A stretch of 64,000 nucleotides of DNA from Haliotis cracherodii (GCF_022045235.1 NW_027266265.1:29450001-29514000); one strand, 5' to 3'. Shown: positions 8,766 to 64,000, counted from the first letter of the stretch. Notes: a model not told the origin generated them from the letters alone. Numbers and translations are program-made.

Positions 8766-8928
8766 TATTTATCTTATGAAGCATGAAATATCTTTGTTAT
8801 TCAAACGAAATGATTATGGCATGCAAATGGATGATATAGAATATACAACAAATGCTGATATTTTTTCATCATATGATGTCATTGTGGATAAATTGTATGC
8901 AATCATTTTCATCGCGGTTACCAGCAAG

Positions 8929-11900
8929 ATGAAATATCTGCTACTACTGGCGATGTGTGTGTACGTTGTCGGGGCCAGAGCCAGAGACAGAAGCTTAAAC
9001 TTCAAACAACGGACATTTCTGATGGCACTCGATGAAAGGAAGCTGACCAGGGACCTCCGATCGTGTTGGTTGGACAGCACTGGTCATTGCTGTTCCAACC
9101 ACATCGCCGGCTGCCGTTACTACAGAAGATACCAAAAGAAATACAGGTCCAAGAACAGGTCAAGCAAAACACGTGAGTATGGAGCGTTGTGTGGACAGAC
9201 ACGGACCAAAATCTAAGAATTGTTTGTTTGTTGTTTAACGCCGCACACAATAAGACAATCCAGTTATTGACATCATGAGCATCAATTTACGCAATTGGGA
9301 TACGATGACATGCATCAACCAAGTCAGCGAGCCTGACCACCCGATCCCGTTGGTGTCATCCTACGACAAGCATAGCCGCCTCCTTGGGTTGTTGAAGACC
9401 ACCTCTACCCCAGATCTTCAAGGGGCCGATAACTGAATACCGGCAAGGGAATGAATGTTATTTTATGTCTCAGTCATCAATATTCCAGCTTTATCACGGT
9501 GGCATCTGGACCATCTGGGATTGTCGACCAGTGAATGATTGCACGTTTAACAACCCAGGGTATGATGGCCCACAATCAGCCAGGTCACACATTGTCATGG
9601 ATTATTGCCCGTATTTTCAGTCAATGGTTTTCCTAGTCCAGGGTCGTTGCAATTTCTCGTAACATCAATCACCTGTATGTCTGTTCCATACTCGATTATT
9701 AACATAGGTGGACATGTTTTAACAAAGTTTACAAAAAACAGACGAACATACGTATCGTCTGATCCACATCATTAGTAGTGATATAGAACTTTGTTACAGT
9801 AACAAAAATGTTCTGATGTATAGAACTTTACCTGATCAGTTAGATCAAGCCTGCTGGTACAGTATTTATTTTCCCCCGTCAAATTTGGAAGCATTGGTAC
9901 ATATTTCAACTGGCTGGAGAAGCAACTTAACATTATATATGACGTTGGCATAAGTTTGAGTGAAACATGTGAACACAGTATTTTTCGCTACTGTAATTGA
10001 CTGTTTGGGTTTTGAGAGTTGTTTGGTTCAATAACTAACGCGTTCATGTTTCGTTTCAGGAAATAACATCTTCTTTTTCAATACTATGCCTTATTATCCT
10101 GGCAACTACTGGTACCATTCTTGCAACGTACAGTGTCTCTGTACCTCATACCACGCATCGTGTTCACATGCTACGACTGCTGCCGCTACTACAACCACAA
10201 CAACAACGACTACTACAAGTACAACCACCACTACTACAACAACGACCACAACGACAACCACCACACCAACTACAACTACAACCACAACGACTACTACCAC
10301 CACTACAACAACAACGGCTGCAGCTACGACAGCTGCGACTACAACGGCTGCGACTACGACGTCTGCGACCACTACATCTGCTACAACAACATCTGCTACA
10401 ACAACATCTGCTACAACAACATCTGCAACTACAACATCTGCAACTACAACATCTGCAACTACAACATCTGCAACTACAACATCTGCAACTACACCAACGA
10501 CATCCACTACTCCTACGACATCAACAACGGCAACCACATCCACTACGCCAACCACATCAACCACAGCGACGACGGTGGCAACAGCCGTGAGAACAAGATG
10601 TACGTACACTGTATACTTTCAATCCTATAGTTAAAGCTCAATGTCAAATGAAAGCATTAAACACTGACCCAGTGATTCACCTCTCTAATGTACAAAGTAG
10701 GTTCTTTCGGTCCTGCCAGGGTCTGCTTTCGTGGATTACAGAATTATCCGGATAATGAGCCACGATCTTCAGTATGGGTTTCATCAAAGGTATTAAACTC
10801 TGAACCGCTGTGGCAAGTCCTTGGGCTTAAAGCAGCGTTGAAGACAACCTTTCAATAGAGGTGCCAGTTTTCTAGAATACATTTTTGGTTGCTTATTGTC
10901 TATTCATTTTCATTCTTAGACTGTCCACGGGGAGTAACAACCGTGTCCAACATTGTCAGGATCATGAACGGACGACCCGTGAACAACTGCACAACATATC
11001 CCGGTGTTGTCACTCTAAAATCACCAAGAGGCGTCACATTGTGTTCTGGTATAGTCACATCAAGCACTACAGTCTCAATCCCCAACAACTGTGCCCAGCT
11101 TCTCATTGAACCGTAAGTGATAAACACATCTACATCTCTTTGAAAAACTCTCATATGTATCTGAAATAATGTCCTTTTATGCCTGTATCACAAACAGCTT
11201 TAGGCACCGTTAAATGCTTAGATTATGTATGACAAGATCAGCAAATAACCAATTCCATACAGCAACTGTTCTGTCAGCTTAAATTGTAGGCCGGACATTT
11301 TCTTCAATAGTACCAAGAGCAAAACGACCAGGAAAAGAAAATATAATCAATAAATTCAGTACATGAAAATCGGTCAGGAAATCACAGCTTCATCTAAAAT
11401 CACAATAATGAATACTTGTACCCATTTGTTTATACTACCGAACAGGCAATAATCTATGGAAACATTTCTTGGCCAGAATCGTCCAAATAATATGTAATCA
11501 GTTTGGCGCATCATGAAAGATTATTTCTACTAGTTATATAGTATTTTGCATTTGGCTCTTGTGATCCTGCACTACAGATCTATGTTCAACTTATGCATAC
11601 CTTCACTGTGCAGTATGCTGGGGTGTCCGTATGTTCTACCTAAATGTCACCTCGTGACATCGACATCCTGATTAGAATACTAGGTTTTCAGCAACCCATG
11701 CTTGCCGTAAAAGTCGACTATCCTTGTTCTAAGAGGCAACTAACGAGATCGTGTTCCACACTCGATTATTTACAGACCGCCGTCATGTAGCTAAGATATT
11801 TCTAATGGTGGCTTTAAACAACAAACAAACCAAACAATTATGCAGTATGCACATCTTACATGATATCTCATAGGCAGGTTTGCAAATGATGTACAAAGTA

Positions 11901-14060
11901 AGTATCCAACCTGTTTTAATGACAATGAATACATACCTCATAGACCCATGAAGAGCCGGGGTAGAATAGGTCTTCAGCAACTCATGTCTTGTCGTAAAAG
12001 GCGACTATTCTTGTCGTAAAAGGCAACTAACGGGATCGGGTGGTCAGGCTCGCTGATTTGGTTGATGCATGTCATCGTATCCCAATTGCGTTTTTTCGAT
12101 GCTCATAATGTCAGTCACTTGATTGTCTGGCCCAGACTCAGTTATTTGGAGACCGCCGTCATATAGCTGGGATATATAGTGCGGCGGTAAACAACAAACT
12201 AACAACAAAAGAAAGAAAAACATTGCAATGTCTCTGTTTCAGACTAGTGTTGACTGATCCATCAAGTGGACGCCCCTTAGAGAGAGTCCAAGCTCTAAGT
12301 GGTGAGTTCACGTGGAGTTTGCTTATGCTTTGGAAATACTGTGCTTATGATATAGACGGAACTGTATAATGGACTCTTGATGCCTTATGATTCAAGGAAA
12401 TATGTCTGTCGTTTAATTTCCAACTGAATCTCAATTAACGTCTTTAAGTGGAATTTAGAAGTTGGTGTGATGAACAAGGGATATAGTTCTATGGATATAC
12501 AACTTTATTGTATAATTGCAGTCATTGTAACAAGGTAGTTCTTTATCAATAGAACTATTCCTTGAATATCTCAATTATCTCTTTAACGACATGTGTAGTA
12601 ATGTCAAATTAGCACAAGAGTCTATCCCAAACTCTACGAGCGTGAGATCGTACATAAACTTTCGTTCAAAGAAACATTAAGCACTAGACGATTGACCATG
12701 TGTTTATGGTGTTGTGAGCATTATCATGACGTGGATGTTGTAAATTGGATATATATTCCTGTATTAGTTTTCTGAAGAGACTGCAATGCACCCAACTGTT
12801 ATTATTCAACACAGACTTGCTAGAGTCGTTGTGCTGAAATCGTCTTTGTTTGGACCCAGGGCCAGGATTGATGAATGACCAGTAATTATAACTCAAGCGC
12901 ATTGCTACCTTAAATGAAGTATGATTTTCCTTTTAAGAATCTCAGCTTGAAAGTCTACGTCCTGGTGGGCCCTATGAAATAACACTAAATGAGCCGCTGT
13001 CCGCCGACACCTGTCCTGGAATAGCGTGCACGTACGAGAACAGAATGCTGAACCAACTAGACATCAACAGCTGTGTTGTAGCCGCGGGTGGATACAACAG
13101 CAATAGTGGTATGTTGTATCTTTACAAGGGCGGAGTGAGTGAGTGTGTTGGATTTAACGTCGCTTTAACATAATTACAGTTATATCACGGCGTTTCAGCT
13201 TTGAGGAAACCCCAAAGAGGATCATTTGGTATTGTGGTTATACCCATGAGTAAGGACATAGAGTAAGGATCGGCGTATCCTTACATGGTTGAGGGACAGT
13301 AATGTCGGCGCTTGGACCACCAAGCCACCATCGCTTGTTGCAGTGATGGATCAAGATTGATATATGTCTCTCCTAATTACCAAGGAATTGCTTTATGTTT
13401 CCTGTAGAAATTTGTTATTTGTGTTTGAATGTTTTCAGGCAATGGGCCAGCCTCTTTCTCCTACATGAATGTGTCAAATCTGCAGCCTACAGAAGATTGC
13501 GCTGCTTTCATCAGGTCGTCTGACCAGTCAGTTCTCTTCAACCCTGCTATCGTGTATAACTGTTTCTTCGGCGCTGGCTCATCCACCTGTGCAGTGAGTT
13601 GTGATTAATATTTTAACGTCAACCTGATGTTATTTGATCGTCTCTCTCACGAAAATAGCAGACAATAATATGACAAAACATTGCATGTTAGCCTTGTTGA
13701 TATAAAGAAGATATATAAGAATTAACAAATGCACGTGTGGGGCAAGTAAGGTTGCAATGTGTTACGATATTGATTTTAGAGCTTGAAACGACTCGCACAA
13801 TGATGTGTTGTGTTTTCACACACAATACAGTTCTTTACGTCTCTATGTGGAGTTTATCTAAATATCATTATCTTTATTGTCAGGGTGACTCAGGCGGTGG
13901 TGTTATGTGTCCGCTGTCTTCTGGAGAGATGGTGGTGATTGGACAAGTGGAGAACATTCCGTGTGAAAGCATTGGTGTCATTGGACTGTACGACATCGGG
14001 CAGTCTGGAGAATCCCTCCGGGTGCTGAGGACCCGAAGGAAGGATATAGTGCTTGGTTGA
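8929..14060 (+). CDS. SPH-1: secreted Cys/Tyr-rich module + Thr mucin stalk + non-catalytic trypsin-like domain (512 aa)
   Basis: join(8929-9172,10060-10599,10920-11112,12243-12301,12938-13108,13439-13593,13884-14060) = 1539 nt, open, all GT-AG, phases 1,1,2,1,1,0. Signal MKYLLLLAMCVYVVGA; RDLR|SCWLDSTGHCC; VR|IMNG; CSGIVTSSTTVSIPNNC (His57 to Asn); GIAC; STCA-GDSGGGVMC; ends RRKDIVLG*. Confidence 0.9.
9220..9425 (-). mobile_element. SINE-like family A
   Basis: Reverse-complement match with an internal deletion. Confidence 0.75.
11685..12205 (+). mobile_element. Two SINE-like family A copies (11685-11830 deleted; 11942-12205 near full)
   Basis: cccatgaagagccggggtagaataggtcttcagcaac.. through gcggcggtaaacaacaaac. 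Confidence 0.8.
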
Positions 14061-20486: not shown

Positions 20487-20807
20487 TAACCGAAATATAT
20501 GGATTAAAACCAAACTCACTCACTTTTGTGTCAAATCAAAGATGAATGTGTCAGAACAGTAATGTAATCTGCCCAAAGGAGCAAATGCCACATTTTGACA
20601 AAATGAATATCTCAGAAAATAAACAGGTTGGACAAAGGGATTTTGGACCCAAACTTTAAAAAAGGTAAACCAGTCATTTGACCCTTTTTGTTTCGAACTT
20701 TGACGAAGGAATGTCAAGCATCAGGCCCGTTTGGTTTAATCTTACAGTAAGGCTTGTCGTTCACTTGACTTGGTTTAAATTTATATGTCATGTCAGTATA
20801 GTCTTGC

Positions 20808-21100
20808 GGCAAGACATGTAAATCACTGACCTGTTTGGTTGAAACTTACAAGACATGTAAATCACTGAGCTGTTTGGTTGAAACTTACAAGACATGTAAA
20901 TCACTGAGTGGTTTGGTTGAAACTTACAAGACATGTAAATCACTGAACTGTTTGGTTGAAACTTACAAGACATGTACATCACTGACCTGTTTGGTTGAAA
21001 CTTACAAGACATGTACATCACTGACCTGTTTGGTTGAAACTTACAAGACATGTAAATCACTGAGCTGTTTGGTTGAAACTTACAAGACATGTCAGTCACT
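20808..21100. repeat. 39-bp tandem repeat, about 7.5 copies
   Basis: Unit tgtttggttgaaacttacaagacatgtaaatcactgagc, contiguous with no spacers. Confidence 0.92.
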
Positions 21101-21270
21101 GGGCACCTTTGCTTTTGGCATGTAGTTTTATGTAGTGTTACACTGATTTTCATTTCCTCATTTAAAAAGTATGGTTTCGAATGTGACTCAAGTTCAAATA
21201 AGAGAATGAACTTAAAGTACATACCAATGTATTTTAAGAATAGCATGAATAAACTAACCTTTTCGTACTA

Positions 21271-23282: not shown

Positions 23283-24272
23283 GTAAGTATACTGTTTCGT
23301 TACAAATGTTATATTTGGGATAACACTTTCTTAGTAAAGTACAGATTCTCGTACTTTTGTGGGATTGAGTCCTGTCCGGCATTCGAACCTACACTTACTG
23401 TTTCGTCTCTTGACATTTGGCAACTGTTTCCAGCTTTAATAAGCTAAAGAAAGTCTGTAATCAAAAACTAAAATTGAGCATCATATATTAAAATATATGG
23501 ATAATAAGATCCTTCTTTGCAAACCGATTATGATTGAATAAGGAACATACTGAAGTTCGTTTTGTTGTATACCAGTACCAATACTGCAGCGACACAACGT
23601 TAGTATGTTAATAATTTCCTCTAGACCAGACATAACACTTGTTGACAACAAGAGTAGCGATCTCTGCCTTGGGGTCGCTGTGACAGTCTCACATTTTCTT
23701 ACTTTTTGGACAATTGTACATCTATGATAAAGATATGTCATATTCGCTTGAGAATATATTATTCCAAACTGACCAAGCAAACGTTTTTACTTAAGATTAA
23801 GATTAAGTTTTAATTCTTTAAAAAATCGTATGGGTTTATCGGCAGCCCCGATGACTACCGTACCATCATAATAAAAACACAAAAGAAAGTCTTATGAACA
23901 AGGTTCAAGGGTATAGTGTAGCCATCCGATACTCATTTCAGTCGGCACTTTTGATTGATCTCGTCTTTCCCGGGTGAACCAAACTGTACATTGCTGAGAT
24001 GATTAACTAAAATAGCAATTGAGTTCCATCAAATATTTCACGAAATAACCGATTTCAAAGCTTTCATGTAACATATATCTTAAACTATTAATGTTGGTAA
24101 TGGTAATTTTGTTACAGTAACTATATCGTTCATCACGCCTTAGACCCGGTTCGATTGCTAGAATATTCCTCAAAGCCTCTTCCTTTTATAATCCTCATTA
24201 AATTATCGTTTCATATACAATAGGCACATCTTCGAATTTCCATTTTCGAGTACACATACCGACGCATCAAGC

Positions 24273-37400: not shown

Positions 37401-39879
37401 TCATTATTATTATTCTTTAACATTGATATGCATAGCGATACTATTTTAGGCTTGAACTACAAGACCCAACCACTGGCACCGTCATTGAAACTCTACCTGT
37501 TATTGACAGTAAGTGAACGATTTCCTTTGCTCGAGTAACTAAATCTTCATTAATATCTGGAATATCCACGAACTATGAAACAAAGTAATGGCGACACATA
37601 ATCAAGAGATCTATTGAGATGAGAGCACAACAACTTTGATGCATAGCTCTGAATGCTCTGGGGGCCAAGTTAATATATTACTCTGGTATGATTGAAATAT
37701 GAAAACCACTTACAATATAAAGAAGGGTATCGGATGCTACTGATTAAATCCCTCTCTCGTCAGACGAAGACCGGGGGCGGGGGGTCACGGGTGGCCCAGT
37801 CGCCTAAGGCGCCGCGATTCGCTGTGCAGAGTTGCGTCCCTTGGGCACGCCAGAAACCTATGATTGTGGGTTCGAATCCCGGTTCGCCCCGATTATGTTT
37901 CTAGGTTTGTCAGCACTATACCCGTGCTCGTGGGTTTCACCGAAGTGGTAGACGTCTGAGACCTGCATCACTTGGGGCTTTCCTCCCACATTAAGCTGAC
38001 ATGCCGTAATATAACTGGAATAGTGTTAAAAGCGGCGTTAAACCCAACTCACTCACTCGCTCACTCACTCACGAAGACAAAGGTTGGATTCCCTATATGG
38101 TACATTTATAATGTCTACCGCAGTGAAATGGTAGGACTAGGGTTAAAATGGGCACAATATCTTATATTTATATCGATATGTCTTGCCACGTTTCCTAGCC
38201 ACAACCGTCGCAACAGGAGGTCCGTTCACAATCACTCTGTCCACGCCCATCAGCTCCACGGGTTGCCCTGGCGTTGCATGCATCTATGACGCTGCCATGG
38301 TCGACAACATTGACCTCACAAGCTGCGTCGTTGTCGGTGCTGGACATGACGATATTGCAGGTATATCATACAGGCTTTAGAAAGCATATGACAAAATTAG
38401 GAAGAAACTGTTAATTCCTATGTTCTTTCAATCTGCTTTGTGCTCCTCGGTAAACATTGATCGACGTTTATTTCAGCTGCTTTATTTTTCACGCAATGAA
38501 TATGATATTTAAAGTAGATGAATGTACGTGTGTTTAGAATTGCGGGTGTTATTTAGTATTTGATGCCCAGAAACTTTATTTAGACCCGACGGCGTTAGTC
38601 GGATGTTTCAAATGTTAAGATTTCGTCATTGTGTTGACTAGCACGCTTTTACAAATTGGGATGGAGAAAAATATTCATTCGCATGAAAATTCCGAAAGAC
38701 TTACTGGATCCGGTCTCGTTTAAGAAGTTTTTCAAGGTTGCAGCACACATTCAATCATTGTTAAGCATGTGTTATTTTTCAGGCACGAACCCCGCAACAT
38801 TATCCTTCTACACCGTGCCAAGTCTCCAGCCCACGGCCGATTGTCCCGCCCTCCTGCAGGCGTCTGGTCAAGCCGTCCTCTTTGACACTGGTCTTACGTA
38901 CAACTGTTTCTTCAATACAGGATCTTCTACCTGTGGTGTACGTATCTATAACACAACGCACTTTCTCACATTACCTAGGACCCAATGCATTAAGAAGGGG
39001 GTAGCCTTGTGGTTCTGACACTTGTGCCAAAGTTTTCTGGTAGACATGTTCTCGTGTGTTTTCAGATGTACGTGTTTGCAAACGAGTGCCGCTCACCTTT
39101 TCATGAACACGAGTGATCATCACTACTTGATAGTGATTCATAAATTCATGCTAATGATATAGTCTGAATCGTACAATGGACTGTACTTTCAGCAGAGATT
39201 TCAGGTCGCCTCTAAGGTCTAGGGGTAGAGCGTCTGCCCTGAGAGCGGCATACCCGGGGTTCGATCCCCGGTCTCGTCGTATCACAATACATCAAAAGAT
39301 GGTACTTGTTGTTACCCTGCCTGGTGCTCGGCATTAGGGGGCTGAAACAAGCCTTAGGACTGGTTGGCTTGGGGTCAGTATACTGTGTCTAAATGTGTAA
39401 TTGATGCGGCATGGTATCTCAGTGACCTAGCACTATAAAATCGACATTAGTCCGGACTAGTACAAGCAGCCACAGACGCACGTGCAAGCACGTCGCTATT
39501 TAAGTGCCATGACCTTGGACGCAACGTTAAACCCGATTTCACCTCTTATGATTATTTAAATGGATGTCGTCGCTTTTGTTTACTAACCTTACCTAATGTA
39601 TTATTTAAGGGTGATTCTGGAGCTCCTATCATGTGTCCCCTTACCACCGGAGAAATTGTCGTCATCGGTCAGGCTGAGAACATGCCCTGCGACGGCACCG
39701 ACATCGTTGGCTTCTACAATCTGGAGGCTGCGGCTGTCAGAGTGGGCCGTAGAGAGAAAGGGTCTATACTGTTGGGCTATCAGCCGTTCAGGAGATTTAA
39801 CAAACATAAGATTGTCCTTGGCACCGGCAGAAAAGCAACCCGAGTTATTCTTGGTAAACCCAAGATTACTCTTGGCTAG
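34462..39879 (+). CDS. SPH-3: close paralog of SPH-2 with Ser195 retained and His57 to Asn (485 aa)
   Basis: join(34462-34672,35161-35565,36037-36232,37450-37508,38199-38360,38783-38937,39610-39879) = 1458 nt, open. Exon sizes 211/405/196/59/162/155/270 match SPH-2 except the Thr exon. GDSGAPIMC. Confidence 0.9.
36660..37372 (-). mobile_element. 3' fragment of an RLE-type (R4/Dong-like) non-LTR retrotransposon in an SPH-3 intron
   Basis: ETVQHIISGCPAL knuckle remnant and KILWN..NKPDLV..IIDFSVP..KY, a PD-(D/E)xK restriction-like endonuclease; absent from the equivalent SPH-2 intron. Confidence 0.85.
37772..38070 (+). mobile_element. tRNA-derived SINE family D
   Basis: gtggcccagtcg..ggttcgaatcc head, gcggcgttaaa + (ACTC)n tail, TSD ACGAAGAC at 37764 and 38071. 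Confidence 0.85.
39203..39545 (+). mobile_element. SINE family C in the last SPH-3 intron
   Basis: Absent at the paralogous SPH-2 site. Further copies at 40395-40665 and 51560-51740(-). Confidence 0.8.
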
Positions 39880-42404
39880 ATGGTTTTACAGATGAAAGGA
39901 CTTTTTACTTCATGTGTGTTTACTCGGAGTTGTTTATTATTGGTTATTGTCATATGGTATGTCTTGTGTGCACAGTATACACGTGCAAGTTTCAACGTTT
40001 TCCTTTGCATGTTTAAAACAGGAGTTGAGAGATATATCTCTATTCTATATTAATGGACATATGTTGTTGATTATGAAAAATATGTGTTGTTTGTATTTGG
40101 TTGTTTTAGCAATTGCGAAGATTATGATTTTAATAAATATGTTTTTCTAATTGTTGTAATTATGTCTATTCTGCTACAAGCTCAGTTCAATTCACACTCA
40201 TCAAAATATCCTAACAGACTGGACATTATACTTATAGAGACGTAATAACAAACATGACCATTTTGGGGTTCGAACCTGGACTGGAACCCCTCTCGGATGC
40301 CAGTATAAATTAAACCACACATTACCAAGACAGGAGCAAGTAATAGAAAAAAACGCGAAAGGTCCTTTACAATTGGTTTAAAAGGTTGCATAGTCCTTGT
40401 GGTCTCGAGGAAGAGCGTCTGTCCAGAGAGCGGAAGATCCGGTGTACGATACCCGGCCGCGTCATACCCAAAGACGTTAAAAGTTGATACTTGTTTTTGT
40501 TGTTATCTTGTCTGGCGCTCGGCATTTAGGGGTTGAAACAAGGGCTCGGAGTCAGTATACTGTGTCGGAGTGGGGTATTGATGTTAAACCGCGGCATGTA
40601 ACATGCAAGTCGTCATGTTAGTGTAATAATCATGTACGCGACGTTGAACCCAATTTCACCTCACCATTTGTCTTTATGTCATTATACAAGAGGTAACTAC
40701 AGATGCACGTGTTGAAACGAAATTCGTTATCGTCCGTTTTCCGTTGAAGGAGTGGGTGAGTATGGACGTACGCCCCTTTAAGTAATATTCCAGCAATTAT
40801 CAGGTGTGGGGGCGACACCAGAAATTGGCTTAAAAAACATTGAGCTTGGGCCTTTGGCGTGGAGAGCAGATGCTTTATCACTTGGCCATCTCTGGGCCTT
40901 TGTTTTCAGATTATATAAGATTTACCTTTTCACAACCCGATTAAATCTACTGCTTTTACACAATTTAGCATATACTGGGTATACACATTTACCTTGATAG
41001 TATTGAGTGAACCGTTCTGGACACGTAATAATGAAGACGACGGCATAAATTTAAACCATGAACAAGACCGTACCTTTCCGTGAGTTGTGTCGATGATGTT
41101 TTACCCACAACAAAAAAAACCACGTAGGGCTCACACAGGTAACTGAGCACGTGGCGCCTACCTTAAAACAACAATGCTCCGCCAGCTGACACAGACAAAC
41201 AGTGAACGTAAATACGACCGCACGGGAGTGGCTTCTGTGTGACGGAGATGCTGGGCTTACACACCTGCTGTATCTCATCTGTCGTGGGGTTGATTGTTTA
41301 TACATGTATGTGCGTTAGTGGGTTGGTTTTTGCGTCACTTCATACAGTAGTTCAGTTATATCAAGAAGTGTCAACTCAAAGGTACCATTGGAGTGTTCAT
41401 CGGCTTATTCCCATACCAAGTCATACATAATCGTACTATTTTAGTGTCACCTCTTCACACATACATGTGTATGGCTTAACTGGTTGTTATCATATCCGCC
41501 TCTGTGGAGTTTAAGACAACTTGACCGTTCGTGTTCCAGGAGAGGTTTAAATGTGAACTCGTCCAGGCTATCAGTCTGTTAACACTGTAAATTAGCTTAT
41601 CGTTTTTAATCAATTCATTATCACAATGTATCGATGGATGAACAAATTGCTGCATTTCAGCATTATTTGGGAACACTGAGAATGGTTACATGCTTTTAAC
41701 AAGACTACAATAAGAAACCGATGTTAAGCGGATTTCACAGATGAATACAGCGTTGGTAGTGTTAAAATTCGTATACTTCAAGACAGATGAATACAGCGCC
41801 AGAATTCTATGGCTCGTATACTTTAATACAAATAAAACCCGTGAAAATCCTGGTTAGAATGGGTCTTCAGCAACCAATGCTTGTCGTAAGAGGCGACTAA
41901 CAGGAATCGAGTGAGTGAATATAATTTTAAGTCACGTCGGCAATATTTCAGCCATACTGTGACTTGACCAAGTTATACAAAAATTATTTAAAAAACTGTT
42001 TATGAAGGACAGTATTATAACTAGCAATATATCACAGTTTGACTTAAAATTAGTTGAACAGTAAAAATCGATTAATAGGCAACGATACAATATAAACATG
42101 GGACTACAAGTCGCCAGTAACAAAGGTAAGGTCACCATACAAGGGACCAAGGGGACTTACTGTACCTCTGCTACCTGCATGATTCCCCAGAAGGATTTCG
42201 AGTTTAGCCAGAGATTAAAAGTAAAAAAATATTCTGCAGTTAAGATGGGTTAGATATTCTTTGAATAAGGTGGTCTTACATACCATCTCAGTGGGAAAAT
42301 AATTTTACGGTACTTTAACACCCGTAGAGGACAGAGCCACGAACAATCTCAGTTAATAATCATACACTACCGATTTATAAAATACATAACTTTTTCATAA
42401 AAAA

Positions 42405-44490: not shown

Positions 44491-44689
44491 AGAGTGCGTG
44501 TAGTCAATTTGGAACGAAATTGTCTCCAGCTGCTAGGTGTATTTTGCATAATTGTTCTACGAGCTTATGCTTTTGATATCCTTAAGCGTTTTAAGTTATC
44601 TTCAGTCGGATGTTTATTGAATACACTTTCCGACATTATCCTGTTTTGTTTCTAGCTTTTTTTTTTCAATCATCATTATACCATGGTGT

Positions 44690-46215
44690 ACTAACATGTG
44701 GAGTTGTATAGGTATTAGAGATAACGTCCGTGGCAATGTTTAAGAAGGTCATGATCATTCATAAAATGATTAGCTTTCAATTTAGTACTGCAAAAGAAAC
44801 TAAACAAAAGCCTCACTACCTTGGAAAATTGCTTTTGTAAATGAAACTATCCACAAAGGGAGATATAGCTTTACATACGGTAGGAAAGTGATCAGTGCGG
44901 CACAAATCACCATGAACTGACCATGAACTGAAAAAAGGTCATTAAAGAGTGTCAGAAATGGGCAAATCCAACGCTGAGAACATACTCCTGGATTGAAGTA
45001 TGTGTTACTTCCATCATTAAGAAGGCATAGACTATGCTTATCAAGTAATTCTTCTGTCACATTTCCTATATCTTTATGATCGGATGAACCCAATACGATT
45101 TGTGACAATTCAAGTCTCCCATAATCAAAAACACTTTGGGATGCTGGTCAATGAGATCATCCAGATCCCTGAGTTGAAGAGCAGATGATGGATGTATATA
45201 TGAGGAACACAGAGTTATTGTTGTAATATACCAAGTTATACGCACTGCAACAGCCTGAAGGTATTTAGTGCAATAGGGCTTTGAGGAGATCCCTATTTCA
45301 ATGGTATATCTGTGCCAACATACGCCTTACTTTCAGTAACCCTTACAAACGAACTATATGTATCCTACTGATGTAAATTAAATAGCTGACCATCTCATGT
45401 TTCCTGGAGACTAAACGGTTCTTATCTTCGGCTAGAAGGTTCATTTCTTCAAAATTAGCTATAATTCCTCGGCAGTTACATTGTATGATATTATGATTCA
45501 TGGAGGGTGAACATGTGATCTACCTCTACCCACTTTCTTTTCAGAAGTGTGGCCATGTACATGTATGTAACTTTTGGTGGGTTTTAGGGCAGTGACATAA
45601 GATATTTTAGTTGGTCCTGCAGAGGAATTAGCAGGAACTTTCTTTCGTGCATCAATGTAGCCAATAGTTTGCTCAGACTTAACCCGTTACACAGCCGACT
45701 CAAATTCGAACACAGGACGCTCAGGGGAATATGCCATGTGTGCTTCTGTGCAGTGAGGACATTTGAGGGTAGCACAACAAGCAAAGCCTTCATTTCTATT
45801 TCAATGTTGAGCATGACCAAACTGTTGGCATTTGAAACAGTTTTCACATGGTTTTCACAAATCAATCCTCATAACTTCTTTGAGAGGCATTTAGAAAATG
45901 GAGTACTGAGTACTGAGTTGTTCATCCATAAATCATTTCCTTACTTTAGTCAATTCTCATAGCAAAGCAACCAACCTGGAAGGTTAGGTGAAGCAAACGT
46001 GATCAAGAGATAAGTGTTGGAAGGTAAAATGTTCCCATCTTCCTTAAACGTGAAACGTTTTGCTTCAATAACACCTTGATCTCTTAGCTCAGAAACAATT
46101 TCATCAACTGAGAGGTCATTTAAACTACGATCACGATCACGGACGATCCCCTTACTGAAGTTGAGTGATTTATGAGCATAACTTTCGATCTTGATATCTG
46201 CCGGTTTAGTTGATT
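44690..46215 (-). mobile_element. Decayed I-group LINE remnant (ORF1 end + APE endonuclease)
   Basis: MNHNIIQCNCRGI at about 45500, LQAVAV and LLNDGSNTY EN motifs, plus degenerate knuckles upstream; many stops. Confidence 0.75.
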
Positions 46216-47717
46216 CAATTCAATTCGGTTTATTTCGTAAGTGTAGGCCATCGGCCAATAGTTACATTTATATTACAATGGACGTGGTGTACACAGATCT
46301 TATTGTTCTGACAATAATGTACTACGAAGTGACATCGCTTGACAGATATAAAATATAGCAAAACGTTTAATTACTTTACAATCAGTTTTAGACATAGTGA
46401 TAACAATTTCTTTGTTTTGTCGGATATTCATAACATTTCTGTGGCAAGTGATCCACCCGTGTTATAACCGGAGCAAACTAACAAGACATGATACTCGTGT
46501 AGTTCATTCAAAAAGGGTTGCAGATTGTTTATGAGTTTTGCATTCCACCAGCAGGGCGCCACACTTCAGTTTTGTAACATCAGACATTCCCTGCTTTAAC
46601 TTTTATTGCTTTTTTTCTAGTAGAACCGCCTTCTGGGCATCGGAATCGAGAATCAGTTAAATTTTGAAATTTCTCAAAATTCCTCAAAATTCAAGAAAGA
46701 AAGAAAATGAAAAAAAAATCAAAAGAGTGAGTGAGTATGGTTTTACGACACATTCTACGCCGGATCCTAATCTAGATAAACACAGCAATTAAAGCATTAT
46801 GGCTCGTAAACTTCAACACAGATACCTTCAGAGCTGATATCGTCGGTTATAATTGTAGTGCGAAAAGACAGGTGTTTTAAGTCGCATTATTGAAATCAGC
46901 TATTTGCAAGACCGACACATTGTGTTATGGTCTATTTTATATTCAGAAAGAGAATAATTGCAAATGTCTCACGACTATTTATAGTTACATACATAAAACT
47001 GAGTCGCAAAAGCAATTTACCTTTCAATTGAGTTGATGTTTTATTTTCAATTGAAAATATGTTAAGTTAGCGATATTTCATCCCAAAGAAATAAACTGGC
47101 GCTTAGTCAGCACTCAAAGAATAATTGTACGTGTTTTTTTCAAAATATAATTTGATTTAAAACTTTTAAAAAACATTTTGAAACATTCCATTATACAAAA
47201 CTGCTGATGGGTATCTTAGACATCTTTGAAACTCAATAAATTTGCATTTCAAACATTGTAGAGGTCAAGTGAGTACAAATTCATTTCTTACACAAGTCTT
47301 CATTGAACCAAATTATTTTAACACAAAATTACCCATCCACAGATTACTTTTTACAGACGGTTACAGGAATCAGTGATGGTTAAATACACATAATCAAATT
47401 TAACAAAGGTTCTTTCAAATTTCAATTATTTAAAACAAACTCGGGATACTATCTTTTGCCCCAAAGTTTGTAAAATGTTTCGAACCTTGAAATGCATGAT
47501 TAAGCATCCCCACTTGTGCTGTAGGAAATTTTCCAGGTGTCGTAGCTTGTGTGGAAACGCTTCTGTAAAGCCCATCTTTGTATGGCAAACATTGGTATAT
47601 TCTATGATATGTACTTCTACTGCTGGTTCAACATCGAAAACAAACCCTGTAGTGTTTGAATCACTGTTTAAATAGAAAAAAATCCCACGGCAGTTCTTCC
47701 ACCGAAATCCATCTCAG

Positions 47718-47725
47718 TATAAATA
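47718..47725 (+). promoter_or_regulatory. TATA box of SPH-4
   Basis: TATAAATA 63 bp upstream of the ATG at 47781; identical at 63514-63521 before SPH-5. Confidence 0.6.
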
Positions 47726-47780
47726 CCCCGTCTCCCTCCTGTTTGAACGCCAGCGCCTTGACAGCTCCACACACAGCAGA

Positions 47781-50700
47781 ATGAATTGCCTACCCATACT
47801 AGTCTGCCTATCACTGGCAGTGATGGTGAGTAGCGAATATCTCTCCATGGAGTATCAGTCAGAGAATTATGAAAGTGCTATGAGGGCTGAAAGTCAAGCT
47901 TCACTGCGACACTACAGGCCCCGCTACAGCTACGTCGACTACTCGGGAGACTGCTGCCGTAACGGTAACAACAACTGTGGATGGGCTCGATATTGTAAGT
48001 AATCAGTGCAATTATACATATATTATTACATACAATTCACGAAGTTTGTATAACGAGGTAACTGCTAAAGCCATGCTGATTTTTTCACCCCAAACAGGCC
48101 CCAATGCCAATAGTTTCTTTTCGCGAACACTTGGTATTATCACTGTTTGATAGTGGTTAAAGAACACATGCTCATGGTACAGTCGCAATCGTATAATGGA
48201 CTCGTTCAAGAAGGTGTTTATTGCTGTTAATTACGAATTAGTTTAACTCAGTGGCAAGAACATTTTGTGGTGAATCAAAGCAACGGACTAGTAATTCTCC
48301 TAGTATCACTCTAGAACACTCAAGAGAGCGAAAGGTCTGTGGTTCGATTACCAAGATATGATACTTGTTGTCACTCCGCGTAATACAGAAATTTCAAATA
48401 TTAAATGACAGGAATCAAAAACGGAATAACACCTTCAAATGTGCAAAATTGAGCTTCATCGACACTGTAAATGAAAATGTCTGTCCGAAATAGATGTACT
48501 GTGAACTGTGACACATGCATATTGCCAAGCTCAAATGTTTTGACGTCGTAATACTTTGCATGACGGCATATCTGTCAATCACAACTGAATAGGCCTCGTT
48601 AGCGTAAGCAGAGAAGTAATCAAACACATAATTTATGTTTTTTCGCTAATAAATATTAATCAAGTGCAATATTGAATGAATGATCTATTCATGTCGCCAT
48701 CTCAAATGCCATTTTCCCAAGTGGTGATACGCAACGAAAAGACCCATAAAGATCTGGCGAAGAATAGGTCTTCAGCAACCCATACTTGCCGTAAAATGCG
48801 ACTATGCTTGTCGTAAGAGGCGACTAACGGGATAGGGTGGTCAGGCTCGCTGACTTGGTTGATGCATGTCATCGATCCCAAATGCGTGGATTGATGCTCA
48901 TGATATCAAACACTGGATTGTCTGGTCCAGACTCGATTAATTACAGACCGCCGTCATAAAGCTGGAATATTGCTGAGTGCGGCGTTACACAACAAACCAA
49001 CAAACCATAAAAAGGCGTAAAAGGCAAACAAGTGATGGAAAATGTGTGAAGGCATCACGGAAATTCTGTAATAATACCACGTGTTTGCGAAAACGGTTAG
49101 CACATGTTTTATGTCCTGTTCTACCAATAGCACCCTCTCAATATGGTGCCAGTGAGTTAGGTGGTTCAACACTCCATGACTGTGAAGGTCATTGCATGGG
49201 AGAGAACAGCGCATCATGTTGCCAAGCCAGGGGCAAATTACTTTAAATGTTAAGCTGTTCACCATACACGTTCTGAAATGACTTAACCAGGACTTTGATG
49301 GTGATTCTTTGATTGAGAAGCTTATTTGTAATCTTTCTTTCCGTGAAAAATAACCCGATTCAAACAGATTGCCTCACACAGTCTCATTCGTTTTACAGTT
49401 GTCAGTCCAGTCGAATCCCTCGACGCACAAAACACACATTTTGCCGACAAACCCGCGTGTGAATATCGCGCGTCTTGTTTGTTTCAGATGCTTCCTCCTA
49501 CTATGGATCCCGGTACTCCAGGAGAGGCTGCTACTATTATAGACCACAAAGCTCTGTAGTATACTGCGGATGTGTGGGAGTACAACAATGTTCTCCAACA
49601 ACTGTTGCCGCTACAACCACTACTACAACAGCTGTTCCCACGACTACAACAGCTGCTCCCACTACTACAACAGCTGCACCCACTACCACTACCACTCCTA
49701 CAACTACTACTGCAGCTCCAACAACAACAGCCACAACACGATGTTAGTTAACATAAACATTTTATTGTTCTTTATTTATGTACCACCAGAACAACCGTGG
49801 AGATTCATGGGTAGAATTGTTTCCAGTAACCCTAATGTGCTGCTTACGGACCATCGTTATGATATGGATCGATGTTCATGCTTTCAGTCACTGGTTTGTG
49901 CTGCTTATCAGTTCAACCACTCCTGTGCCTGAATATTTACAGACATGATATAGCTGGAATATTGCTGATGGCGGCGTCAAGAACATACTCGCTGACTATT
50001 ATGTGTACAATTTCAGTTTGTCCAGCTGAGGCCTCAACCGCCCCAACCGCCACCACGAGGCTACTAAACGGCCTTGCTATCGCTGGATGCGATGAGTTCC
50101 CAGGGCTTGTAGCCATCCAAATCGGTGGAGCAACTGTATGCACTGGAGTCGTCACCAGTGGCACGACCCTGTCTATACCCAGCAACTGTGCTGCTTTTGC
50201 AAACGGAGCAGAGTAAGCTGGCTTTATGATACTCATTACTATTAAGATATTATTATTAATAGGAGGTAGTGTTTTATTGGTGTAATTGTTGGTAATAATA
50301 TCCTGCTCAATAGTACCATTTAGCATTACGCAAATTGCCAGAAGGGGAATCACAGTGGCATCCTCCTGATCTGCGCCAACAGATAAGGAGGTACCGAACC
50401 TTAGGCACCAAGATCAGTGGGGAGTCGAATAACTTATACTTGTGATGCAGGCACGACATTTCACATGCTAGGTTCGTTTATTTGACAATTTATCAAAATG
50501 GACAATGTTGCATTGCAAATACTTGATTACCTATCGTTATTGTCGATCTTCCCAAAAGATCCTCTCAAGCTCTACAATTTCGTCCCTATAGTTATAGTTA
50601 AGGATCATGTATGTCACAGCACAAATATGTGCCAGGTGTTTTTACGTATATAAATCCAATAGTACAACATGTATCATTGAAATGCAAACACTACAGGCGT

Positions 50701-52685
50701 CGTCGTAATTGTACCCTTGTTCGACGAGCCCCATTGGACGGTGGGACAGCCTACTGGTTAAAAGACAGGGTTTGATTCCCCACATGGGTACAATGTCTGA
50801 AGCCATCTTCTAGCTACCAACTCACTCACTCACAAAGAAAAGACAGCACTAAAATGTCACATTGTCCTCACGGGTAGTTTCCTTCGTTCACCCAGCTCTG
50901 ATCTGGTTTCGGACACATTTTGAAAAAGCAGCCAATTCAACTGTATATTTTTCTATTCGTAGTGTTGTGGCTCAGGATGGAACCGTTATCGCAACAGGCA
51001 TCACAGGTAAGAGACAGGTCACTTCACAATGATGTGTGTTTAGGTTTTCGTTTAAACACATTTTATTCACATGAAAAGAACATGATTTATCGCAAGTACG
51101 CTGTTCCTCTCCCCAGTATTTATATACATGATGGGTTGTACTTTTGTACATGTTGTGGTAGAATTTAGAAGAAGGGGAACAAATATTTTGTTTAAAAATG
51201 TACGTCTTACCTATTTTACCATGGACAGAAATATAAAGTTCCGCATTTCCAGATTGTATCAACTCAATGTACAGGTATCCTTATCTTTGGAAATTTCAGC
51301 AACCGCAGGAGGAGTAGGTGGGCCTGTTGAAGTGACCTTACCTACAGCAGTGACGTCAAACAGCTGCCCCGGCATCGCCTGTGTCTATTCCAGCACTATG
51401 GCAAGCGACATCCTCCTGGATACCTGCAAGGTTGCTGCTGCAGGATTCTCTGATAATGCCGGTGAGCAGCGATCTCAGAAGTGTGGAAGATGCGTAGTGA
51501 CGCATGTGTAAAAGTGGGCGTCAATGATGCAAGAAACGATCTCGGAATTTTAGACAGTGGGGTGAAGTGAAATGGGGTATAACATCGTGTTCAAGATTAT
51601 TTCACTTGCATGCACGTGTGCGTGTGGCTGTTTGTACTAGTCCGGATGTATGCCTGTGTTGTGCTGCTAGCACTCTGAGATAGAATGCCGCAGTTTAAGA
51701 TTGATTGCTTAGGCACATTATACTGATTCCTTGTTTTATCCCCACGGGTAAATATTTTGTAAGTTAGAGCTTCACCTCTGGAAGAAAGAGCCCCAAACTA
51801 TCTGGAAGACACAACACTTCATTGTCCCAAGTGATTATTTGTTTTAAACAATCTCATCTCCCCAACCCTCCAATCCCACCTACCCTGGAATATCATATGA
51901 TCAACCTCGCACGTGTCTTCTGCATCACAGGTACTTCAACTCCTGCCTTCGAGTACCTGGATATCCCCAGTCTGCAGCCAACGGACACGTGTCAAGCACT
52001 TCTTTCAGCCAGCCCCACTTCTGCTGTCTTTGACTTCACGAACACTGCCATCACATATAACTGCTTCATTAGTCCCAGTGGCTCTACATGTGCGGTATGT
52101 ATATTGTTTCCCTTATTTCCAGGCTGAATGGTTTCATAGTGAAGCCTCTATCTCGAAATGTTACTACCTTCTACACCTAAAACCCTTTAATTCTCATCGA
52201 AGGGGAGGGGCGGTTGGGTAGATCATTTGTTATTTTAAATGCGTAGTGTATTTGTATTTGTGTCTTTTGTTTACGTTACCACACATGTGACATCGGTGAC
52301 ATCCCGTTCACTCACACATCTGTGCCAGAAGACTATGAATTTGTTAGAGTAGGCTATAAGAACTCAATTGCAATAACAAGCATTGGCACGAAAGGTAAAG
52401 TTCCAATCAATTCTGAATACCAGGATTTGAATATAAAGGTCCGAACAAACTCTGCGATGCAATACGCTCAAAAATTCAACGTTAATACATAATTAGTGGT
52501 GTCGTTACTTCCAGGGCGACTTCGGTGGACCAATATCTTGCAGTCTAACGACTGGAGAACAGGTGGTTATTGGGCAGATCGAGAATGGTGACTGCACGGC
52601 CGGTTCTGCTGTAGGATTCTACAACCTTGAAGCAGCGAGTGTTCGTGTTCTTGCAACAAGCAGGGACCAAATCCAGCTCGGATAA
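47781..52685 (+). CDS. SPH-4: divergent paralog with Ser195 to Phe and a 21-nt microexon (408 aa)
   Basis: join(47781-47994,49131-49151,49488-49742,50017-50212,50963-51006,51300-51461,51931-52094,52515-52685) = 1227 nt, open, GT-AG. Signal MNCLPILVCLSLAVMVSS; RHYRPR..DYSGDCCRNGNNNC; TR|LLNG; CTGVVTSGTTLSIPSNC; STCA-GDFGGPISC; ends RDQIQLG*. Confidence 0.88.
48740..49005 (+). mobile_element. SINE-like family A, full length
   Basis: Matches the family consensus end to end. Further partial copies at about 21880-22035, 41838-41905 and 49800-49990. Confidence 0.82.
50385..50505 (-). mobile_element. Short remnant of the RLE-type element
   Basis: ggaggtaccgaaccttaggcac..ggggagtcg..gacatttc matches 36924-37000. 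Confidence 0.55.
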
Positions 52686-55570
52686 AAATATTGTTTTATT
52701 AATTTGTCTTGTGTTCCATGTTAAATAAACAGCTGAACATTTACAGTACCATGTTGTAATTCTAACTATGTGCATGTATATCCAATGGCATACTTTGTAT
52801 ACTTTGAGGATTCCTAGAGCAAAAGCTTTTGGCAATGAAACTGGAAATAATCAAATTGACAAAAGATGCTTTATTCGGTCAAAGTCATATCGTTAGGTGG
52901 TAGGATATTTATATAAGTTCAGTCTATTTTATAAACAACAGTAATTTCGTGTTAAATAGTCCTCAATCATGAAATAATACGTCCCTATGGACGTCCCTCG
53001 GTCTTAGCTGGTAGTTTAAACCGTTGGTGCCATATGCAGAAAGGAGATACCTTTGTGACGTATTTAGTTCACGTGTTTAGTTCATGTCTTCTTGCCTATG
53101 AGTATCGTTCGACGATTTCCTTTAATGTCGAACCCCTAAAATGACTCAAGTCAAACTTTCACCACTTTGGAAATACCCACGACTACCAAAGGTTATAATA
53201 GGGACGGAAGCTGGAAAGCAACACTGCACCGCTATTTAATCATATGAAGTTGATATATTCGTCAAGATACAAAACCCCAATTTTAGTTCTTATTTCGCGT
53301 TTTATTGTTGAAATGTACAAGAAAACACAATGTGACAACATATGACAAGACTCAAAAGTCATTCAGGATTATTACAATAATGTAGCGACTTTCATGTACG
53401 CGTTTGTGGCTGTTTGTTCCAGTCGGCCATATGTCGATTTTATAGTACCAGCCCAGTGAGATCTCATGCGGCGTCACGACGCACTTTCTTTCATCACCGC
53501 ATATTTTCGCTATTAGGTCTACATTGTCGTGTTGTCACATTCGCGCATGGTGGCACTGCTTATTTCACAATGCCAACCAAGACTGATCTATACCAATAGA
53601 TGAATAAGTCAAGGGTTTAAATTCAGTCACTTCATCGAAAAAAATAGATTGTCCCAAAACATGCTTGAAAAAATGTATTAATGCCTTAGACTGGAAAGAA
53701 AAGAAATTGTTCCAAGGTGGTTTTTACCAAAAACAACAGTTTAGGCTTACAGTTTTAATATATTTCTGGTTTTGCAGCAGTAATTGAAAAAGTATTTAGT
53801 CTCCAAACAAAACCCCATATAGGTTTCTGTCACGCTCACGGTACGCAACACTGCACTGTGCATTCATCAATTTTAGTGTGAGAGTAAGTGAGTTCAACAA
53901 TTAAATTACCACGGCACAGCTTGATGCAGAAGGAGAGCCCGAAGTGATGCAAATCTTAGATTTAAACACATTGGTAAAACCCACAAGCAGAGGAAAGGCG
54001 CTGGGGTGCCAACCTATGCCTAGTGGACACAGCTCTGCACAGCAAATACACCGTCCAGGATGACTGGCACAACCGTACCCGTCCTTCAACGATGTGATTA
54101 GTTATTGGCGACCTGAAATAAATTAAACAGAAAAAAGTTTATTTCTTGCTGTCAAAACACGTTGGTATTTAAAACCGACCCCGAAAAGAGAGATTTGGTT
54201 TCATTCCGAGGGAAGTAACCCACATTGCCATCGATACTTATGTTTTAGAATCATTGGAGACCACTGGAGTTTGTAAAGGAATATAACCATTTCTGTGCAT
54301 GCGTAGATATATTCACTTATTACACATGTACAATATTAATAGAAAAGGGACACAATGCGAATTTAATGAATACTTGCATATTCGCACATTTTAATGCATT
54401 GCTAAATATAACAGATGGGACATTTGGTCAAAATGTCGAGATGTCTCGCTTTTTATCACTTTTAGTTTGTGTTTGTGAGGGCACGAACACGGCAATGTCC
54501 CTACTAGGATTCAATATAATTCTACATTGACCTCGGTAGTGAAGATTGAGCTAATAATGGAGATTCTGAAATAAACAGTTTTGATTCCAATGACAGAGAG
54601 ACTTTGGCACTATTTGCCAGTACAAATAGATCCGTTAGAATCTTCTTTACCAGTGGGTGATACCATACTGATCAGTATCTGCACAATTCCTCTAACCATC
54701 CACCACAAATCAAAAGAGGAATTATCGCCACCTTAGCCCGACGTGCCGTCAACATCTGTTCCACGCCACAACACCTACAAACTGAACTCAACCACCTCCG
54801 CCATGTCTTCACTAACTTCAACAATTATCCTACCAGCCTAGTTGAACTAACAATCAACAGCATCCTCAGCCCCAGAGAGCGGCCTCCACGACAACACACA
54901 GCCCCGTTTGTCATCAGTCTTCCCTACATAGGAACAGCCAGCCACCAGATCCGCAGACTGCTCAAACACCACGCCAACATTGATACACTATTCCAGAGAG
55001 ACAGGACAATCCAGAACATCCTCAGTGCCAATGGCAAGCCCCCTACATCAAAGAAAGAAGACCCAGCTGGTGCCGTATATCACATACAATGTGACTGTGG
55101 CGACTCCTATGTAGGAGAAACATCCAGGCCCCTACCCATTCGAATAAAAGAACACAAGACCTCAGTACAAAAAAAATGACTCAAAATCAGCCATCTCCGA
55201 CCACACTCAAACCCACCCCGACCACAACATCCAGTGGAACAACATCAAGATCCTGGCCAACAATCAATCAGACTACAAAATCAGGAAACTCCTAGAAGCC
55301 ATCTACATCAAAAGGATCCAGCCAGCAATGAACAGAGATCAAGGCTATTACATCCCGCCTGCTTACCATCACCTAATTGCTAAATCCCTATGTCCATCCA
55401 ATTAATCCACTGGCTTCCATCATCTCTATCATTCTGCTTGCTGACTATGTGTTCATTAGTCATCAACTGGCTTCCAATTATCTTAATCAGCTCTCTGTGT
55501 CCATCAATCAATTAACTGTATAAACATTGATGTTAATAAGTATATATACCTATGTTGTTTAGCACGATCC

Positions 55571-60075: not shown

Positions 60076-60164
60076 CCAATTGTAATAAAGAAGTTGTTCA
60101 TCCATAGAACTCGTCTTACTTTATCACACCAACTTCTAATTGCCACTGAAAGAAGTCATGGTGT

Positions 60165-63513: not shown

Positions 63514-63521
63514 TATAAATA
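63514..63521 (+). promoter_or_regulatory. TATA box of SPH-5
   Basis: TATAAATA, copy of 47718-47725. Confidence 0.55.
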
Positions 63522-63576
63522 CCCCGTCTCCCTCCTGTTTGAACGCCAGAGCCTTGACAGCTCCACACACAGCAGA

Positions 63577-63790
63577 ATGAATTGCCTACCCATACTAGTC
63601 TGCCTATCACTGGCAGTGATGGTGAGTTGCGAATATCTCTCCATGAAGTACCAGACAGAGAATTATGAAAGTGCTGTAAAGGCTGAAAGTCAAGCTTCAC
63701 TGAGACACTTCAGGCCCCGCTACAGCTACGTCGACTACTCGGGAGACTGCTGCAGTAACAGTAACAACAACTGTGGATGGGCTCGATATT
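63577..63790 (+). CDS. SPH-5 exon 1 (recent duplicate of SPH-4; remainder beyond the window)
   Basis: 214-nt exon, same length and phase-1 donor (T|gtaagt) as SPH-4 exon 1: MNCLPILVCLSLAVMVSCEYLSMKYQTENYESAVKAESQASLRHFRPRYSYVDYSGDCCSNSNNNCGWARY. Confidence 0.85.
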
Positions 63791-64000
63791 GTAAGTAATC
63801 AGTGCAATTATTCATATATTATTACATACAATTCACGAATCTTGTATAACAAAGTAACGGCTAAAGCCAACTGATTATTCACCCCAAACAGACGCTCATG
63901 CCAGATCAATAGTTTCTTTTCGCGAACACTTGGTATTATCACTGTTTAATAAAAAGAGCACGGAATTCAAATTTACCTGTAGATTGTCTTCTCAAAGCCT

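Follow-up and report, generated by a model that had tools for sequence, protein, structure and literature searches.

A Cys-rich N-terminal region shared by five paralogous abalone genes is a candidate new protein domain, carried on a threonine stalk and a predicted dead protease. The genes, SPH-1 to SPH-5, lie in tandem on the plus strand of a 64-kb stretch of the Haliotis cracherodii genome (64,000 nucleotides; GCF_022045235.1, NW_027266265.1:29450001-29514000), referred to here as the window. Four of them are complete, and SPH-5 is represented by exon 1 alone inside the window. Each encoded protein starts with a signal peptide and a pro-segment ending in Arg; the Cys-rich head comes next, then a stalk of Thr and, at the C-terminus, a domain of trypsin fold (Table 1). 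The prepro layout, the basic-aromatic head, the Thr stalk, the acidic domain lacking His57, the purifying selection and the splicing of the SPH-1 head are read directly from the sequence. As to function, we tentatively favour, with confidence short of an even chance, a proteolytically matured two-ended linker of extracellular matrix or mucus (shell or periostracal matrix, cuticle or mucus).

The models of SPH-2, SPH-3 and SPH-4 have seven exons with GT-AG introns in phases 1, 1, 2, 1, 1 and 0, and that of SPH-1 is open over 512 amino acids (aa), its exon 4 and exon-5 acceptor being predicted only. The SPH-2 and SPH-4 models are identical, letter for letter, to the H. cracherodii RefSeq proteins XP_071086317.1 (P0003) and XP_071086331.1 (P0005). 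These two, together with XP_046333475.2 and XP_046333485.2 of H. rufescens, are the same proteins or orthologs. The RefSeq names, "uncharacterized", "mucin-22-like" and "cell wall protein DAN4-like", follow the stalk and leave the head and the protease fold unnamed. No paper describing the family was found by accession, locus id or topic in a literature that included few subscription journals.

Cysteine pattern and splicing of the head

The head is 58-72 aa long, rich in Cys, Tyr and Arg (19-23% aromatic residues, 12-22% Tyr) and interrupted by a phase-1 intron. Intron 9173-10059 splits the head of SPH-1, and the reading of this head depends on one splice. Four of 17 listed runs were compared with the window, and the junction was spliced in two of them: one contig each in X1 and X4 passes from 9172 directly into 10060, the RNA status of both runs being a guess of the tool, with none recorded as RNA. 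Of the other two, X8 has no exon coverage and X11 reads through the intron. The X1 and X4 contigs show six differences from SPH-1 exon 1, three silent and three giving A18S, S50T and T51S; they touch no Cys and no Arg of the RDLR motif.

In the spliced models the Cys spacing is 7,0,6,40,3,1,6 in SPH-1 and 7,0,6,30,3,1,6 in SPH-2 and SPH-3, with eight Cys each, and 0,6,19,11,1,5 in SPH-4, which has seven, as do the H. rufescens proteins P0004 and P0006. This bears out the counts of eight and seven Cys in a preliminary description of this DNA. The 13 Tyr given there for SPH-4 are also found, 12 of them in the 58 aa after RHYRPR and one in the motif itself. The aromatic and basic core described for all of SPH-1 to SPH-3 (RYYRRY, MPYYPGNYWY) holds to the letter for SPH-1, while SPH-2 and SPH-3 carry RYYKRY and MPFYPGNFWY instead. 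Counted over six frames of the window, the patterns D-x2-G-x-CC-x6-C, C-x7-CC-x6-C and C-x3-CxC-x6-C occur 5, 3 and 3 times, where 30 mononucleotide shuffles give averages of 0, 0.03 and 0; as the patterns were read off the sequences themselves, the contrast shows repetition, not function.

In the head alignment neither Cys1 nor Cys5 is present in SPH-4, whose aromatic stretch has gained a new Cys. Because both were lost, a Cys1-Cys5 bond linking the two exons is suggested, with one free Cys in SPH-4, on the strength of one evolutionary event. Alternatively, the new Cys could be a shifted Cys5.

Searches for relatives of the head

The earlier view, that the head is rich in Cys, unrecognised and borne on a mucin-like stalk, was upheld: Pfam, the PDB sequences, the ESM Atlas and a protein profile search all failed to give a domain match. 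Pfam returned no family for any of 12 exon translations, of which six came from the head, and no chitin-binding family matched the head. With the nine rows of the head alignment the only candidate was DUF7075, at E 0.15 and 11.7 bits where the cut-off is 23, which is at the level of chance. No PDB sequence was matched at E up to 10 by the whole-head and exon-2 profiles, and the eight matches of the exon-1 profile (E 0.28-1.7) are again what chance would give. The ESM Atlas, searched without its small clusters, held no usable match for either the exon-1 part of SPH-1 or the head of SPH-2. The HMMER head profile matched two of 1,835,955,588 representatives, P0003 itself and P0008. The latter (E 6.6e-11) was rejected: it is a tandem repeat with a unit of ~96 aa, translated over 1347 aa, and its score adds up 13 stretches, none of which extends beyond profile positions 18-49. 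Weak family matches to RIFIN and DUF7504 were dismissed as chance, and one to MAP_0585 as stalk composition. The HMMER filters hide weak matches, and such profile negatives are compatible with a known fold.

Word-indexed searches found 2 relatives among 1591 candidates with exon 1, and 3 among 3256 and 6 among 8000 with the protease domain, all from Haliotis. The family is thereby seen in four species, H. cracherodii, H. rufescens, H. rubra and H. asinina; this range is a lower bound, as annotated eukaryote proteins are unevenly represented in the libraries and distant relatives escape the word index. For H. rubra and H. asinina the models (P0009, P0010) consist of the protease part only, the head being missing. 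These two form a third protease subgroup (support 99/96) that is absent from the window.

AlphaFold2 gave no usable fold or disulfide pattern for the head (nine-row alignment, pLDDT 44) and no usable model of full-length P0003 (five rows, pLDDT 36.5). A VIA structure search with the pLDDT-44 head model returned 0 of 48161 and is uninformative, and a predicted complex of the head with the protease domain scored 0.00, which is evidence neither way and was not used.

Pro-segment and candidate cleavage sites

As the preliminary description had it, the pro-segment ends in an Arg motif: RDLR in SPH-1 (aa 41-44), RDIR in SPH-2 and SPH-3 (aa 40-43), and RHYRPR and RHFRPR in SPH-4 and SPH-5 (aa 43-48). 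Its length in SPH-1 to SPH-5 is 28, 26, 26, 30 and 30 aa, the signal peptide ends having been set by eye in all models, and this agrees with the 25-30 aa given before. R41 and R44 are two of the four invariant columns N-terminal to the head in the five-paralog alignment, in a region where SPH-1 and SPH-4 share only 8 of 44 residues. On shuffling, RxxR falls at the end of the pro-segment with a probability of 0.16 in SPH-1, 0.09 in SPH-2 and 0.04 in SPH-4; combined over two independent lineages the value is 0.0037, post hoc. Because the two Arg are invariant despite this divergence, and given the shuffle probabilities, a processing site at the border of pro-segment and head is likely.

The P1′ residue is Ser in SPH-1 to SPH-3 and Pro in SPH-4, SPH-5 and the H. 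rufescens proteins P0004 and P0006. Pro at P1′ blocks convertase cleavage, so SPH-4 and SPH-5 would need a different, monobasic cut at R-P-R|Y. Nor would the head be released, as was first supposed: all that cleavage would do is expose the N-terminus of a protein of 350-470 aa, in which the head stays on its stalk. The net charge of the pro-segment is +5, +5, +6, -1 and +1 in SPH-1 to SPH-5, and on these charges inhibition by an anionic propeptide that neutralises the basic head was rejected.

Two further candidate sites are present. All four complete heads of the window and both H. rufescens heads have a second RxxR in the loop after Cys4, a loop that is rich in Arg, with the motif differing in position between subtypes. 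A lone conserved Arg precedes the linker Cys (T-R-[FY]-C-P), and a cut there would set free the head plus the stalk.

Conservation of the head

The head had been pictured as variable, which the comparisons do not support. SPH-1 is identical to SPH-2 and SPH-3 at 44 of 62 head positions, compared with 117/246 in the protease domain and 18/43 in the signal peptide plus pro-segment. The ratio of nonsynonymous to synonymous substitution (dN/dS, by Nei-Gojobori on few codons, with dS saturated in the SPH-4 comparisons) is 0.16 and 0.19 for the SPH-1 head against SPH-2 and SPH-3, and 0.16 between the latter two (nine differences). SPH-4 and two H. rufescens proteins are nearly identical, with 58/60 and 59/60 in the head and 242/244 in the protease domain, while between head subtypes identity ranges from 18/56 to 23/49. 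Diversifying selection was looked for in the head by the same method and none was seen. These values indicate that the head is under purifying selection, in two fixed subtypes, and is not a diversifying receptor.

The stalk and the pseudoprotease domain

The stalk is 51-146 aa long and 59-68% Thr. It leads into the C-terminal domain (244-279 aa, 12 Cys), which is a strongly diverged chymotrypsin (S1) fold. PF00089 scored P0007 at 21.2 bits against a cut-off of 20.6 and P0009 at 15.3, under the cut-off, and matched neither P0003 nor P0004. The family protease profile found four proteases in the PDB at E 2e-4 to 4e-4. With a low-confidence model, Foldseek gave nothing at E<=0.001, and all 49 listed rows are chymotrypsin-fold by title.

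Catalytic positions were set by eye from known trypsin motifs in 11 rows, some of them truncated and P0010 without the segment. The His57 position is Asn in all nine sequences that cover it, the GGP-x-x-[IV]TL segment, where Asp102 would stand, contains no Asp, and Ser195 reads S, A, S and F in SPH-1 to SPH-4 and so is kept only in SPH-1 and SPH-3. The protease domains of SPH-1 and SPH-4 are without any His. SPH-1 itself has an R-I activation motif at 10958, Asn at the His57 position and an intact GDSGG. An active S1 triad is absent, and the domain is a predicted pseudoprotease.

The activation-switch residues are kept despite the lost triad. All eight covering sequences have R-[IL] at the activation site (R-I in SPH-1 to SPH-3, R-L in the SPH-4 type and H. 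rubra), Asp194 is present in 9 of 10, and the linker Cys and the Cys122 equivalent in all six complete sequences. In S1 proteases the switch pairs Ile16 with Asp194, position 16 being Ile or Val, and HGF and MSP gain receptor binding through activation cleavage (PMC13194640). Head and protease domain differ in charge: +3 to +9 net for the head and -5 to -16 for the protease domain, with opposite signs in 6/6 complete sequences.

A proposed two-ended extracellular linker and its alternatives

If the family is a linker of matrix or mucus, a convertase or another Arg-specific protease would take off the pro-segment, either within the secretory pathway or later, and unmask the head, which would fold as a single disulfide-bonded unit spanning two exons. 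Through Tyr/Trp and Arg/Lys the head would adhere to an anionic or polysaccharide surface, with oxidation of Tyr to cross-links possible, and the stalk would be O-glycosylated and serve as a spacer whose length can be adjusted. A further cut, at R|I/L, would create a new N-terminus that pairs with Asp194 and so bring the dead protease domain into a protein-binding state, a bond between the linker Cys and Cys122 holding both ends together after the cut. We favour this setting because the head is conserved, because the family is genus-restricted and amplified, and because the abalone mantle makes novel, lineage-restricted secreted proteins (PMC2034539). A conserved head with low dN/dS is as expected for a fixed ligand. 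The proteins Has-vm1 and Has-vm2, described as having few glycosylation sites or Pro-rich repeats (PMC2034539), were considered as family members and, on these descriptions, not matched. An extended version would be in keeping with the motifs, and we consider it improbable. In it the head is a new disulfide fold with prohormone-like maturation: loss of the pro-segment and a cut at the second RxxR would yield a two-chain, disulfide-held Tyr/Arg head, and with the R|I/L-Asp194 switch at the far end the adhesive linker would be gated by two or three proteolytic steps, a molluscan innovation convergent on the layout of arthropod clip-SPHs.

Several observations weigh against the linker. The canonical furin motif, R-X-K/R-R (PMC6682551), is present at none of the five pro-sites, where P2 is L, I, I, Y and F in SPH-1 to SPH-5. 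The minimal convertase pattern (Arg at both P4 and P1, any residue but Pro at P1′) is found at three of five, SPH-1 to SPH-3, the rest having the P1′ Pro. Of the earlier reading of RxxR as a furin-type propeptide site, the conserved Arg motif at the border stands and the furin type is weakened. The SPH-4 type has Leu at position 16, where Ile or Val is described (PMC13194640). No paper tying the family to shell or mucus was found by accession, locus id or topic within the literature covered above; the supplementary proteome tables for abalone shell, mucus and haemocytes may list the proteins under other identifiers. For the limpet adhesive proteome, the accessible part of the report names protease inhibitors, not protease homologs, and limpet-type adhesives are probably without DOPA (PMC7333891). 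A shell-facing protein could as easily be acidic at its binding end. Finally, by analogy, the same layout serves an immune protein in flies, Skanda.

Such an immune role is a possibility that we rate as somewhat unlikely. The proteins would be pseudoproteases convergent on arthropod clip-SPHs, the cationic head binding microbes or docking in a clip-like manner and the cleavage-activated dead domain serving a protease cascade, of the haemolymph or of mucosa, as a cofactor or a decoy. Arthropod proteins that combine a small clip-type disulfide module, a Ser/Thr spacer and a dead protease are known immune regulators. Drosophila Skanda joins clip domains to a dead protease domain, with an O-glycosylated region of Ser/Thr as well, and modulates Toll-PO (bioRxiv 10.1101/2025.09.30.679548), and insect SPHs are cleavage-activated cascade cofactors (PMC11818254). 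Like the clip-SPHs of the Skanda, PPAF-II and Masquerade type, the abalone proteins are secreted and join a small disulfide module, a Ser/Thr spacer (O-glycosylated in the clip-SPHs) and a dead S1 domain; like Skanda they are encoded by clustered genes, and Skanda is regulated by cleavage. The abalone head, however, is not a clip by Pfam or by Cys order; it has 7-8 Cys and a Tyr/Arg loop and is preceded by a pro-segment ending in Arg. The N-terminal part of Skanda is described as untethered, whereas the abalone family keeps the linker Cys. The one group is arthropod and the other molluscan. PPAF-II (2b9l) is among the weak PDB sequence matches of the protease domain (E 0.018), but this match concerns the protease part only and ranks under trypsins. 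A clip domain has six Cys and ends in CC, whereas the CC of the abalone head is near its start. No clip family of Pfam matched the heads or the full proteins, and by sequence these are not clip-SPHs; the family may, by analogy, work in a clip-SPH-like way. Mollusc big defensins are also comparable, with a signal, a cationic propeptide carrying an Arg motif (RXKR at its end in oyster) and a Cys-rich cationic region over two exons (PMC3182236), and the pro-segments of SPH-1 to SPH-3 are cationic as well (+5 to +6). Their RXKR and six-Cys beta-defensin array, which follows a hydrophobic domain and at which the protein ends (PMC3182236), differ from the RxxR without basic P2, the other array of 7-8 Cys and the about 300-400 aa that follow in the abalone proteins. 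No defensin family of Pfam matched the head, which is not a big defensin, and the missing sign of diversifying selection also argues against an immune role.

Three other explanations were weighed. That the head is a diverged form of a known small disulfide fold is rather unlikely, and would be compatible with any of the functional readings. We presume, by eye, a resemblance of the exon-2 half, Y-P-G-x2-W-x3-C-x3-CxC-x6-C, to VWC, TILa or pacifastin, and a fibronectin type I (FN1) hairpin is a further candidate; likewise C-x7-CC followed by CxC-x5/6-C looks to us like the halves of a clip in reverse order, as in a circular permutation. Profile searches support neither likeness: no VWC, TILa, pacifastin or FN1 profile matched the head in Pfam and PDB sequence searches, its six exon translations drew no Pfam family, and the nine rows of its alignment drew DUF7075 alone. 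It is improbable that the head is mainly a self-assembly cap, which dimerises (the SPH-4 type having an odd Cys for this) or binds, head to tail, the acidic protease domain of a neighbour to give a gel or fibre once the pro-segment is removed. The opposite end charges and the seven Cys of SPH-4, P0004 and P0006 would suit it, as would assembly through Tyr/Arg cation-pi contacts, while SPH-1 to SPH-3 have an even number of Cys and the pro-segments are basic or neutral, unlike an assembly inhibitor that neutralises the head. Least credible to us is a signalling ligand of the HGF/MSP type, whose activated domain would bind a receptor and whose basic head would bind heparan-like glycans, for instance when larvae settle or tissue is repaired. 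HGF and MSP act in this way, having lost the triad and kept the Arg-Ile/Leu site, Asp194 and the tethering Cys (PMC13194640), and the abalone domain likewise keeps its switch residues without catalysis, next to a basic head. But the family has no PAN/kringle chain (no kringle or PAN match was obtained), carries a long mucin stalk, is genus-restricted and tandemly amplified, and has no known receptor; its protease domain is also far more diverged, being at the Pfam cut-off in one of four proteins scanned.

A gastropod family with the clip-SPH layout, but with a head that is unclassified and unrelated to the clip, would exemplify convergence in architecture and be the source of a candidate new Cys-rich domain. 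As a result of the RefSeq mislabelling, it is invisible to annotation-based studies of abalone shell, mucus and immunity. The head, at about 60 aa, is easy to make, and its fold and ligand are directly testable. The significance is limited by the narrow taxonomic range of a family so far known as sequence.

Gene models and genomic surroundings

Table 1. Positions of the SPH genes and their parts in the window.
Feature	Position	Strand	Remarks
SPH-1 signal peptide, aa 1-16	8929..8976	+	hydrophobic N-terminus in translation; end by eye
SPH-1 pro-segment	8977..9060	+	net +5; ends RDLR (aa 41-44, 9049-9060); P1′ Ser
SPH-1 head, exon-1 half	9061..9172	+	C-x7-CC-x6-C, then basic/Tyr loop with second RxxR (RYYR)
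SPH-1 head intron	9173..10059	+	phase 1, GT-AG; X1 and X4 contigs join 9172 to 10060
SPH-1 head, exon-2 half	10060..10163	+	aromatic stretch and C-x3-CxC-x6-C
SPH-1 Thr stalk	10164..10599	+	146 aa, 66% Thr; ends T-R-[FY]-C-P at exon 2/3 junction
SPH-1 trypsin-fold domain, predicted pseudoprotease	10920..14060	+	exons 10920-11112, 12243-12301, 12938-13108, 13439-13593, 13884-14060
SPH-2 gene, 7 exons	24273..29333	+	RDIR 24390-24401; head 24402-24483 and 25481-25584
SPH-3 gene, 7 exons	34462..39879	+	RDIR 34579-34590; head 34591-34672 and 35161-35264
SPH-4 gene, 7 exons	47781..52685	+	RHYRPR 47907-47924; 7-Cys head 47925-47994 and 49488-49591
SPH-5 exon 1	63577..63790	+	RHFRPR 63703-63720; 63/71 identical to SPH-4 exon 1

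No family copy beyond the five was found by tblastn of the family against the window. Assembly gaps just 3′ of SPH-1, at 14386 (139 N) and 15653 (160 N), may hide a further one. SPH-1 probably has an upstream untranslated exon: the spliced X1/X4 contig has 18 letters before 8924 that do not align to the window, and an AG at 8923-8924 follows a pyrimidine-rich stretch (8906-8924). TATAAA was found 63 bases 5′ of the ATG in SPH-4 and SPH-5, and a TATA-like box likewise at 63 bases in SPH-3. SPH-2 and SPH-3 end in a basic tail of 33 aa (29235-29333 and 39781-39879) with three K/R-x-[IV]-[LT]-LG repeats, which is absent from SPH-1 and SPH-4.

SPH-3 is a recent duplicate of SPH-2 (59/62 identical in the head and 267/279 in the protease domain). 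The two genes lie in a recent segmental duplication, 24202-29763 and 34386-40322, of 81-95% identity. A second recent duplication, 44682-48152 and 60157-63951 (90-93% identity), takes in ~3.5 kb upstream of and including exon 1 of SPH-4 and SPH-5. Between these last two genes, at 56551-59447, is a frameshifted retrotransposon of the type without long terminal repeats (non-LTR), with an endonuclease remnant, RVT_1 (E 4.5e-40) and RNase H (E 1.1e-17). Two overlapping frames at 54661-55405, with a GIY-YIG-like motif, resemble the C-terminal part of a Penelope-type element. Minisatellite arrays of 27-bp and 39-bp repeats were mapped between the paralogs at 30298-31313 and 20771-21140. Finally, a very high-copy short interspersed repeat is found at ~9250-9400 in the SPH-1 head intron, with a related piece in the first intron of SPH-2 at ~25215-25345.

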